From IMG/VR virus record IMGVR_UViG_2703718808_000018, positions 1 through 12,452 of that record: a stretch of 12,452 nucleotides of DNA; one strand, written 5' to 3'. Within the stretch, counting starts at the first letter, position 1. Every line of letters starts with the position of its first letter. This stretch comes from a virus. Its lineage: Duplodnaviria > Heunggongvirae > Uroviricota > Caudoviricetes. Below the pieces are notes generated by a model that saw only the letters and a program-made list of their open reading frames with translations, ran no database searches and had not been told where the DNA came from. Positions 5,970-6,877 of the stretch are shown here, piece after piece. A program made the translations under genes and the position numbers.

Positions 5970-6257
5970 TCAGATAGAGAAGGGAAATTGTCGGCGAGCA
6001 TGTGTCACGCTTACAATCTCAATGCTTGAAGCAGCTACTCTGTACAGGATTATGTAGTTAGGGTGGGTCACTATCTCTCTCAACCTAGAAACCCGTTCGC
6101 TTGGTGGATATAGGTACGGATGCTCAGATAGAGGTAATACCGATGTTTCAATACGTATTTTAAGTCTACGCGCTGCCGGTGGGTTCTCCTTGGCGATGTA
6201 AGTTATGATCTGACGCAAATCATCGCGAGCAGATGGTAGCCATAAAATGGGCAACAT
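5970..6257 (-). CDS. parE: Type II toxin, ParE/RelE superfamily
   Basis: 95-aa ORF (MLPILWLPSARDDLRQIITYIAKENPPAARRL...) with the size and N-terminal pattern typical of ParE toxins. Its start overlaps the stop of the upstream 63-aa ORF by 1 nt (TAATG), the usual antitoxin-toxin coupling. Confidence 0.85.
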   Translation of the reverse strand: MLPILWLPSARDDLRQIITYIAKENPPAARRLKIRIETSVLPLSEHPYLYPPSERVSRLREIVTHPNYIILYRVAASSIEIVSVTHARRQFPFSI

Positions 6258-6448
6258 TACTCGCTCCTGTTAGTTACAGCAATTTGAGCAATAAGATTTT
6301 CCATTTCAGCCATTACCTCGTCATGTGGAATTGCGGGGCGAGGGTCTGCAAGGCTTGACGCTACTTTAGCGCGCAACCATTCGTTGTAACTGTTTTCTTG
6401 TTCGATAGTTTCGAATTCTGAAACTATCGGAGAAAGGGCTGTACTCAT
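6257..6448 (-). CDS. Type II antitoxin partner of ParE (PaaA2-like)
   Basis: 63-aa acidic ORF immediately upstream of and coupled to the ParE-like gene, with AGGAG 7 nt before its ATG. Size and the N-terminal SPxVSEFETIEQENSYNEWLRAKVA..SLADPRPAIPHDEV region match my recollection of PaaA2-type antitoxins of three-component ParE systems. Confidence 0.8.
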   Translation of the reverse strand: MSTALSPIVSEFETIEQENSYNEWLRAKVASSLADPRPAIPHDEVMAEMENLIAQIAVTNRSE

Positions 6449-6475
6449 GGCATAACTCCTCTTCTTGTACTGTGG

Positions 6476-6877
6476 TCACGCCCGGCGGCTTTTTTGTGCC
6501 GCCAGCCACCGGGCAATGGTTTCTTCCATTGATTTTTTTTTGTCTTTGATTTCTTGAAGCATTTTTTCTTGGTCCTCCTCAGGGAACGCACTAAAAGCCT
6601 GGAGTAATTCGCGTTGGCGAGGACCAATTTTCATCGTGTTAGGGGTGAACATTTGCTCCCCCTCTTCAGGAGGCAATAAAAACCAATGCAACGGATGCCC
6701 TGTAACCTCAACCAGTTTATCCAAACTTGAGGCTTTAGGTGTAGCCTTACCGCTGACCCATTGTTGAACAGTTTGTTGTGTCACACCAATTCTACGGGCC
6801 AGCTCAGCCTGGCTCCATCCAGTTTCCTGAAGAAGCTTGCTGATTCTGTACATCGATACTTCTAGGGCGCTCATCAT
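6476..6877 (-). CDS. HTH (XRE-family) transcriptional regulator; PaaR-like third component and likely prophage repressor
   Basis: 133-aa ORF with an N-terminal helix-turn-helix (ISKLLQETGWSQAELARRIGVTQQTVQQWVSG) and no S24 peptidase domain. It is transcribed divergently from the cro-like gene and is followed on the same strand by the antitoxin and toxin. Start is either ATG 6877 or ATG 6853 (MYRIS...). Confidence 0.8.
   Translation of the reverse strand: MMSALEVSMYRISKLLQETGWSQAELARRIGVTQQTVQQWVSGKATPKASSLDKLVEVTGHPLHWFLLPPEEGEQMFTPNTMKIGPRQRELLQAFSAFPEEDQEKMLQEIKDKKKSMEETIARWLAAQKSRRA

Follow-up and report, generated by a model that had tools for sequence, protein, structure and literature searches.

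This study concerns a 12,452-nt stretch of DNA from a virus of the class Caudoviricetes (IMG/VR record IMGVR_UViG_2703718808_000018, positions 1 to 12,452; hereafter the window), and in particular a three-gene operon at positions 5970–6877 that encodes a regulator (PaaR), an antitoxin (PaaA) and a toxin of the ParE family. The window represents 12.5 kb, part only of an Escherichia coli prophage of the lambdoid, Rac/CP-933-like kind, and the operon lies in its immunity region. The favoured reading, to which a probability of about 0.88 is given, is that PaaR is the CI-analogous prophage repressor, acting at a set of three plus two operators, and that paaA-parE is an addictive cargo on the repressor transcript. 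The 434-like helix-turn-helix (HTH) domain of PaaR would bind three sites between paaR and the ydaS-like gene and two more about 1 kb away, beyond the operon terminator. Binding would shut down a promoter resembling the rightward promoter (PR) of lambda, which would serve ydaS, ydaT and then the replication genes, and one resembling the leftward promoter (PL), which would serve DUF1391, dicB, exo, xis and int. The paaR gene would itself be expressed as a leaderless mRNA from a weak, autoregulated promoter like that for repressor maintenance (PRM), and its transcript would run on into paaA-parE, which would occupy the slot of lambda rexAB, before stopping at the terminator. PaaA, without a DNA-binding domain, would neutralise ParE by wrapping, and ParE would be a toxin of the ParE2 kind, linked to DNA damage and to induction of the SOS response. 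Lability of the antitoxin would make the locus addictive, as in a paralogous system where cells losing the immunity region are killed, and it is by analogy with that system that addiction is proposed for the window locus.

The three open reading frames (ORFs) are co-oriented on the minus strand in the order regulator, antitoxin, toxin (Table 1), and they are predicted to be co-transcribed as a single operon. The genes for the 133-aa and 63-aa proteins are separated by 27 nt that include a GAGGAG Shine-Dalgarno sequence, and the stop codon of the 63-aa frame overlaps the start codon of the 95-aa frame by one base (TAATG, 6259..6255), which suggests translational coupling of parE to paaA. One terminator serves the operon, 19 nt past the parE stop codon, where a TCCCTC/GAGGGA stem with four G-C pairs (5951..5936) is followed by T8; the fold of this region has a z-score of -3.5, and only one of 200 shuffled sequences folds better. 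In Pfam profile searches the toxin matched ParE_toxin (PF05016, 2.4e-17), the antitoxin matched PaaA2 (3.1e-22) as its sole significant domain, and the regulator matched HTH_3 (2e-13). Among sequences of the Protein Data Bank (PDB), the toxin matched ParE2 (5cw7_B, 1.5e-35, 67% identity) and the antitoxin PaaA2 (3zbe, 9.6e-24). These ORF, family and terminator matches are far beyond chance. A preliminary description, made from the sequence alone, had proposed a PaaR-PaaA-ParE-like three-component toxin-antitoxin (TA) operon closed by a strong terminator, and the ORFs, profile and PDB matches and the terminator all agree with it. Every hallmark tested of such a system is present, namely the gene order, an antitoxin of the PaaA family, a toxin like ParE1 and ParE2, and a separate HTH regulator with the PaaR C-terminus. 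Toxicity, cognate neutralisation and repression by PaaR have been reported for the paa systems of E. coli O157:H7, and by analogy the window ParE would be toxic, its PaaA would neutralise it and its PaaR would act as a repressor.

PaaR also gave a weaker Pfam match to Phage_CI_repr (9.5e-6), and its best PDB sequence match was the HTH of the phage 434 repressor (2e-5). An AlphaFold2 model places a five-helix HTH domain at residues 4–67 (predicted local distance difference test score about 90), followed by a disordered linker (68–85) and two helices (86–96 and 100–131). A Foldseek comparison of this model with the PDB aligned the HTH domain only, to SinR, the 434 repressor and C-proteins, and gave no informative structural match for the C-terminal domain. 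Peptidase_S24 was not among the matches listed for PaaR, which were the best 25 of 37 Pfam families, and the model has only helices after residue 86. The filing of PaaR as a lambda CI-type or LexA-like S24 repressor was rejected because this peptidase domain is lacking. More distant homologues in the phage records of Gifsy-1 and Gifsy-2, SPN3UB, mEp237 and Klebsiella phage are annotated as CI or repressor, those of Gifsy-1, Gifsy-2, SPN3UB and mEp237 being 26–33% identical over residues 11–125.

The C-terminal 50 residues of PaaR (84–133; window 6476–6625) are identical to the E. coli O157:H7 EDL933 copy at all 50 positions, to PaaR2 of prophage CP-933P at 30, and to a 166-aa variant from an O104:H4 strain at 34; the N-terminal DNA-binding part is unrelated to that of PaaR2 (15/72 identical) and to that of the O104:H4 variant (19/83). 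When three heteroimmune E. coli loci (L003, L005 and L012) were compared, this C-terminal segment (ELLQxFxAFPEEDQ...ARWLAAQKxRRA) proved to be common to repressors of 123, 133 and 166 aa that carry three unrelated N-terminal HTH domains, and a recombination joint therefore lies within the gene for the repressor. The conserved helical domain at the C-terminus probably serves to oligomerise PaaR, and PaaR2 has been reported to be an octamer.

The candidate operators lie in two palindromes of 39–41 bp with the same arms, at 6914–6952 and 5878–5918, each arm being a 15-bp pseudo-palindrome of the form ACARTN5AYTGT. With one mismatch allowed, this motif is found seven times in the window against 1.5 expected, a number reached by none of 200 shuffles; five of the seven are in the two control regions, and the other two are elsewhere in the window and unrelated. 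Three sites resemble the right operator (OR) of lambda, with centres 25 and 24 bp apart inside the 108-bp paaR-ydaS spacer, where they overlap the proposed PRM and PR elements. The other two, resembling the left operator (OL), accompany a PL-like promoter that was found by a consensus scan and points leftward, to DUF1391, dicB, exo, xis and int; its -35 element lies between the two operators, one of which fills the promoter spacer. A PR-like candidate was assigned by alignment with the PL-like promoter, and its spacer is likewise occupied by an operator (6938–6952); its counterpart in Salmonella reads TTGACC-18-TAGTCT. On the paaR side, no Shine-Dalgarno sequence precedes the gene, and because a TAAAAT-N6-ATG geometry is found there as well, the paaR mRNA is probably leaderless. 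This geometry is kept in Salmonella, Raoultella and a heteroimmune E. coli allele (four lineages), with a different N6.

The three-plus-two operator arrangement is retained, with diverged inner bases, in the EDL933 locus (L002, probably CP-933M) and in Salmonella (L006/L007). In Salmonella, where the repressor is 81% identical, there are again three sites 24–25 bp apart in the spacer and two more about 1 kb away, in which the central five bases differ from those of the window and the half-sites are unchanged; Raoultella keeps the layout with slightly different half-sites. The heteroimmune E. coli alleles L003, L005 and L012 have no ACARTN5AYTGT motif. A good comparative argument can thus be made that these sites are PaaR1-type operators to which PaaR would bind, since their positions and half-sites are conserved, the sequence diverges elsewhere, and they co-vary with the type of HTH domain. 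The operator repeat of CP-933P, GTTTAGTAA, gave no window match with up to one mismatch, and use of the PaaR2/YdaS operators by the window allele was therefore rejected.

Divergent from paaR are a ydaS-like and a ydaT-like gene, which overlap each other; the encoded YdaT is 84% identical to the CP-933P type. The preliminary description had recognised a YdaS/YdaT-like pair and noted that it is reported to be toxic in Rac when derepressed. The family assignment holds by Pfam (Table 1), and the toxin label is disputed, as no toxicity was found for YdaT and the two proteins were given the roles of Cro and CII (PMC8630535, PMC9986795); by the same analogy they would be the Cro and CII analogues of the window. 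YdaT binds TTGATTN6AATCAA at the end of ydaS, and an OM site has been placed at the same position (PMC9986795). A repeat of this form occurs at the ydaS/ydaT junction of the window. The pattern alone is not significant there, since 52 of 200 shuffles gave at least two matches, and the repeat was retained as a candidate because of its position and its conservation in loci L002–L005.

Protein searches found PaaR1-type repressors, 59–82% identical and all with generic names, in Salmonella, Serratia, Raoultella, Klebsiella, Pluralibacter and Morganella. In Salmonella, Raoultella, Serratia, Morganella, Pluralibacter and one further contig, the orthologous repressor (59–81%) is divergent from a ydaS-like gene, and tblastn detected neither PaaA nor ParE in these six loci from outside the E. 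coli lineage. The TA pair is accordingly best regarded as cargo behind a genuine prophage repressor, because orthologous repressors keep the slot without paaA-parE. The same slot holds other ORFs in five of the six loci (Table 1), and no ORF was called in that of Serratia. In PADLOC, neither PaaA and ParE nor the foreign ORFs of the slot matched a defence-system model, and PaaR matched generic HTH models only.

Published work on the CP-933P paralogue fits this picture. Jurenas et al. 2021 described paaR2 in the cI position and showed that PaaR2 plays the part of CI, YdaS that of Cro and YdaT that of CII (PMC8630535). In that system the paaR2 mRNA is leaderless, and footprints of PaaR2 and YdaS cover a 97-bp spacer. 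Each of the two represses PR, PRM and a further, PL-like promoter whose OL sites lie past parE2; a promoter resembling that for repressor establishment (PRE) is activated by YdaT, and the switch is bistable. PaaR2, too, is without an S24 domain. The whole immunity region stabilises a mini-F plasmid, killing being seen only on loss of the whole locus, so that ParE2 is evidently released on locus loss (PMC8630535). The preliminary description had assigned the operon to the place of the prophage repressor, with a cro-like gene diverging from it, and this is in keeping with CP-933P, with the operator layout and with the orthologues that lack the TA pair. The window has the features expected of a CI-type repressor locus: the paaR gene and a cro-like gene diverge and share several candidate operators that overlap both proposed promoters, another set of such sites covers a leftward PL-like promoter, and orthologous repressors occupy the slot independently of the TA cargo.

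Several points weigh against the reading of PaaR as the prophage repressor with addictive cargo. The functional data all come from the paralogue, in which the N-terminal domain of PaaR2 is unrelated to that of PaaR (see above) and the operators differ. The consensus scan that found the PL-like promoter called neither PRM nor PR, which are assigned only by their geometry and cross-species conservation, and the proposed PRM -35 (ATGCTT) and PR -10 (TAGCCT) are poor matches. The EDL933 locus L002 is probably the CP-933M copy, an identification made from its neighbouring gene of the 'ECs1072 family' and a statement in the literature. By protein, Evi is the only deposited phage with PaaA, and its PaaA is of the paa2 type.

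Of the competing explanations, the one that fares best would make paaA-parE mainly an exclusion or abortive-infection cargo like lambda rexAB instead of an addiction module, which is possible but on balance doubtful. The slot behind the orthologous repressor does hold different cargo in different genera, and replacement of rexAB by a TA system has been noted (PMC9986795). PADLOC, however, has no model matching PaaA or ParE, and the published data are of post-segregational killing, with no phage-defence test reported (PMC8630535). A related and broader proposal can be offered only tentatively: that the slot after the PaaR-type repressor, inside its transcript and before OL/PL, is a site of cargo exchange for conflict genes in enterobacterial lambdoid prophages of the YdaS/YdaT class, that paaA-parE serves lysogen defence or exclusion like rexAB and not only addiction, and that the C-terminal 19 residues of PaaA are a switchable specificity determinant. 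If true, the interchangeable contents would include the two E. coli specificity types of paaA-parE, the EACC1-like ORF of Salmonella and, elsewhere, a protein of the PLD family along with several further ORFs.

Less probable is the coupling envisaged in the preliminary description, in which loss of the repressor would also release ParE. In this scheme the YdaS state stops transcription of paaA-parE, labile PaaA decays and ParE poisons the cell, such that prophage induction and toxin release are a single event. It has in its favour that paaA-parE lies on the repressor's transcript and shares its terminator, that YdaS of the paralogue represses PRM, and that PaaA2 is degraded by ClpAP/ClpXP. In the paralogue, however, both switch states still express the TA operon appreciably, and SOS-positive cells are equally rare in them (0.88% in the ydaST-on and 0.95% in the paaR2-on state, with no difference from each other or the control), so that release was not seen (PMC8630535). 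The YdaT-activated PRE moreover offers a second transcription route into the operon (PMC8630535), and the window has the YdaT-site-like repeat.

That a decaying cryptic prophage has left the module behind as an inert remnant is very unlikely. CP-933M and CP-933P have been described as cryptic, and among deposited phages none has the window repressor plus TA pair at the nucleotide level, only the ydaT part being matched. All five ORFs are nonetheless intact, and conservation of the operators and of the promoter geometry reaches as far as Salmonella. Compared with EDL933, parE has 12 nt and two aa differences and paaR 16 nt and four aa, giving ratios of non-synonymous to synonymous substitution rates (dN/dS) of 0.06 and 0.09, respectively; these figures apply to the EDL933 comparison, the synonymous rate (dS) of paaR being saturated against Salmonella and Raoultella. 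Selection on both genes is purifying. The full parE-to-ydaT arrangement is present in at least 484 complete E. coli genomes and some form of paaA-parE in about 830; the paa2-type module of locus L003 is matched in 633 genomes, in 595 of them over at least 80% of its length. It is because of the low dN/dS and this wide spread that the inert-remnant explanation is disfavoured. As a separate observation, paaA differs from its EDL933 counterpart (L002 6782–6973) at six nt, all of them non-synonymous (S2G, I15T, A27T, A30T, P36T and R61K; dS = 0), five of the six changes being derived in the O157:H7 allele when O104:H4 and PaaA2 are taken as outgroups. This is odd for a gene between two constrained ones, and the numbers are small.

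Least credible of all is that PaaR is only the dedicated regulator of a three-gene TA cassette, the real repressor being elsewhere or lost: PaaR was first described as the third TA component (Hallez et al. 2010, as cited in PMC8630535, PMC4803016 and PMC3141249) and the window takes in only part of the prophage; the preliminary description allowed for a repressor gene outside it. Around an identical locus, however, 17.8 kb of annotation contain no further repressor-like gene. Besides paaR's own promoter, PaaR-type operators cover that of the divergent ydaS and, 1 kb away, a second promoter that would drive the left arm; orthologous repressors keep position, operator layout and divergent ydaS in prophages without paaA-parE, and PaaR2 represses PR and PL (PMC8630535).

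O157:H7 has two paa systems, one on CP-933P and a homologue on CP-933M. Its genomes, EDL933 among them, carry a counterpart of the window module with nucleotide identities of 96.2% for paaA-parE and 96.3% for paaR with the spacer, and in most O157:H7 records two places match the window query. Compared with the proteins of L002, identities are 97.0% for PaaR, 90.5% for PaaA, 97.9% for ParE, 88.9% for YdaS and 79.4% for YdaT, and the window therefore appears to carry an allele of the CP-933M-type (paa1) system. Locus L003 is the other O157-type copy, its ParE being 100% identical to the ParE2 of the PDB and its regulator beginning with MQKKE, the N-terminus determined experimentally for PaaR2 (PMC8630535). 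The L002 record itself (NZ_CP124741.1, 286,775 bp, with lambdoid prophage genes) is labelled 'plasmid unnamed2' in EDL933 assembly GCF_029962285.1 and is probably a mis-assigned chromosomal fragment.

PaaA1 does not neutralise ParE2, nor does PaaA2 neutralise ParE1. Residues 1–44 of PaaA are near-invariant across alleles (39–44 of 44 identical; 40 in PaaA2), and the last 19 fall into two types, with either 17–19 or 3 of 19 identical to the window, PaaA2 having 3. The C-terminal type tracks that of ParE, for which 80–92 or 62–66 of 92 residues are identical, and since this fits the reported lack of cross-neutralisation, the C-terminal helix of PaaA is a plausible specificity determinant. The parts are also reassorted among E. 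coli alleles: L012 combines a PaaR1-like repressor (64% identical, with different operators) with a TA pair of the PaaA2/ParE2 type, and O104:H4 combines a third repressor type with a paa1-type TA pair.

Table 1. Features of the immunity region and of corresponding loci. Positions are those of the window unless a locus is named; promoter and operator assignments are predictions.
Feature	Position	Strand	Description
OL/PL-like unit	5874..5917	-	Operators 5879-5893 and 5903-5917; promoter TTGACA-18-TAGATT (5903..5874)
Intrinsic terminator of paaR-paaA-parE transcript	5928..5951	-	6-bp stem, 4-nt loop, U8
parE	5970..6257	-	95-aa ParE-family toxin
paaA	6257..6448	-	63-aa antitoxin without DNA-binding domain
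paaR (PaaR1-type)	6476..6877	-	133-aa HTH repressor, CI analogue by position
PRM-like promoter core	6878..6889	-	-10 TAAAAT (6889..6884), 6 nt, paaR ATG (6877); read from sequence
OR-like operator set	6889..6952		Three 15-bp pseudo-palindromes ACARTN5AYTGT: 6889-6903 (1 mismatch), 6914-6928, 6938-6952
PR-like candidate promoter for ydaS-ydaT	6928..6957	+	TTGATT-18-TAGCCT; from alignment with PL-like promoter
ydaS-like gene	6986..7258	+	Putative Cro analogue; Pfam YdaS_toxin 7.4e-10
YdaT-operator-like inverted repeat	7235..7252	+	GTGATTCATGAAAATCAA; 1 mismatch to published TTGATTN6AATCAA; ydaS/ydaT junction
ydaT-like gene	7242..7667	+	Putative CII analogue; Pfam YdaT_toxin 3.3e-10
sok	11349-11523	+	Rfam, 113 bits
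Hok/Gef ORF	11461-11673		Family match
Slot cargo, Salmonella	L007 3553-3915		120-aa ORF, sub-threshold EACC1 match (22.4 vs 23.6 bits)
Slot cargo, Raoultella	L009 3530-3931		133-aa ORF, hydrophobic N-terminus
Slot cargo, Morganella	L017 1375-1806		143-aa ORF, no family
Slot cargo, Pluralibacter	L018 3050-3508		152-aa ORF, no family
Slot cargo, further contig	L019 2093-3385		430-aa PLDc_2 protein

Over its 1.8-kb core, the window matches a chromosomal prophage in E. coli O178:H19 strain 2012C-4431 (locus L001) at 99.9% identity; this is the identical locus referred to above, and it adjoins potC/potD. The order of its left arm is int, xis, exonuclease, DUF1482, dicB and DUF1391, and that of its right arm DnaT-like and lambda-P-like replication genes followed by hok and rusA; DicB, DUF1391, the DnaT domain, lambda P and Hok/sok are also found in the window. 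In L001 (98–3220) the integrase gene immediately follows potC, at the place that potB should take in a potABCD operon, and the element may for that reason be inserted in or next to potB. A second and unrelated TA system, a hok/sok type I module, is present in the window at 11349–11673. Its sok was the only element detected in an Rfam scan of the whole window, with no RNA element in or near the paaR-paaA-parE operon. The approximately 550 bp between dicB (4129–4317) and the next annotated gene (window 4318–4863) gave no convincing ORF and no Rfam match, including to DicF.

The system itself is already known, paaR-paaA-parE having been recognised since 2010 and its lambda-like immunity switch published in 2021, and what the window carries is a near-identical version of the second copy in O157:H7. 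New in a small way are the operator motif of the PaaR1 type, the modular build of PaaR and the variability of the cargo slot. The operator motif and the orthologues without a TA pair provide a handle for testing the CI-analogue model on a second, heteroimmune allele, and also for approaching the role of the variable cargo behind the repressor. In RefSeq, PaaA is labelled 'RelB family antitoxin' or 'hypothetical protein', PaaR 'helix-turn-helix domain-containing protein' and YdaT 'toxin YdaT family protein', and with such generic labels the immunity function is invisible in the annotation across hundreds of E. coli genomes.

Among known systems, the closest is paaR1-paaA1-parE1 of CP-933M, which has the same gene order, sizes, overlaps, terminator, operators and divergent ydaS/ydaT as the window. 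The host strain and the backbone of the right arm differ, the replication genes of the window being DnaT-like and lambda-P-like and those of L002 a different pair accompanied by the ECs1072-family gene. Next is paaR2-paaA2-parE2 of CP-933P (structures 3zbe, 5cw7, 5cze and 5czf), which shares the order of repressor, non-DNA-binding antitoxin, ParE and terminator, a PL/OL-like unit, genes like those of Cro and CII on the divergent side, a promoter spaced as for a leaderless mRNA and a YdaT-site-like repeat at the ydaS/ydaT junction. Its repressor, however, is unrelated to that of the window in the N-terminal part, its YdaS is only 23% and its ParE 67% identical, and its operators are repeats of the GTTTAGTAA type, not ACARTN5AYTGT.

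The plan of the region is that of lambda cI-rexA-rexB, in which the repressor gene is also divergent from cro, with a tripartite OR whose sites are spaced at about 24 bp and, further off, an OL that covers PL (well established for lambda; see also PMC8630535). In lambda the repressor mRNA is leaderless, a non-essential cargo is co-transcribed downstream and a terminator precedes PL, and the same is predicted for the window. Beyond the HTH class PaaR has no sequence similarity to CI, and it lacks the S24 autocleavage domain; in the window only two OL sites were found, and the cargo is a TA pair, not RexAB. Compared with the 434 repressor, the C-terminal domain of PaaR is different and not cleavable, and overall identity is low. 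The 434 operator is ACAA-N6-TTGT, which the ACAA/ACAG half-site of the window resembles, although the window operator is 15 bp and that of 434 is 14 bp. The small, non-cleavable repressors of Gifsy-1, Gifsy-2, SPN3UB and mEp237 are like PaaR in having no S24 domain but, unlike PaaR, have no linked TA pair, and those of the Gifsy phages are controlled by antirepressors. With canonical parDE systems (RK2, Caulobacter and Vibrio) the window shares the ParE-family fold and an upstream antitoxin gene that is apparently coupled in translation; it differs from them in that its antitoxin is of the PaaA type, without a ribbon-helix-helix DNA-binding domain, and that control would pass to a separate protein that is also the likely prophage repressor.

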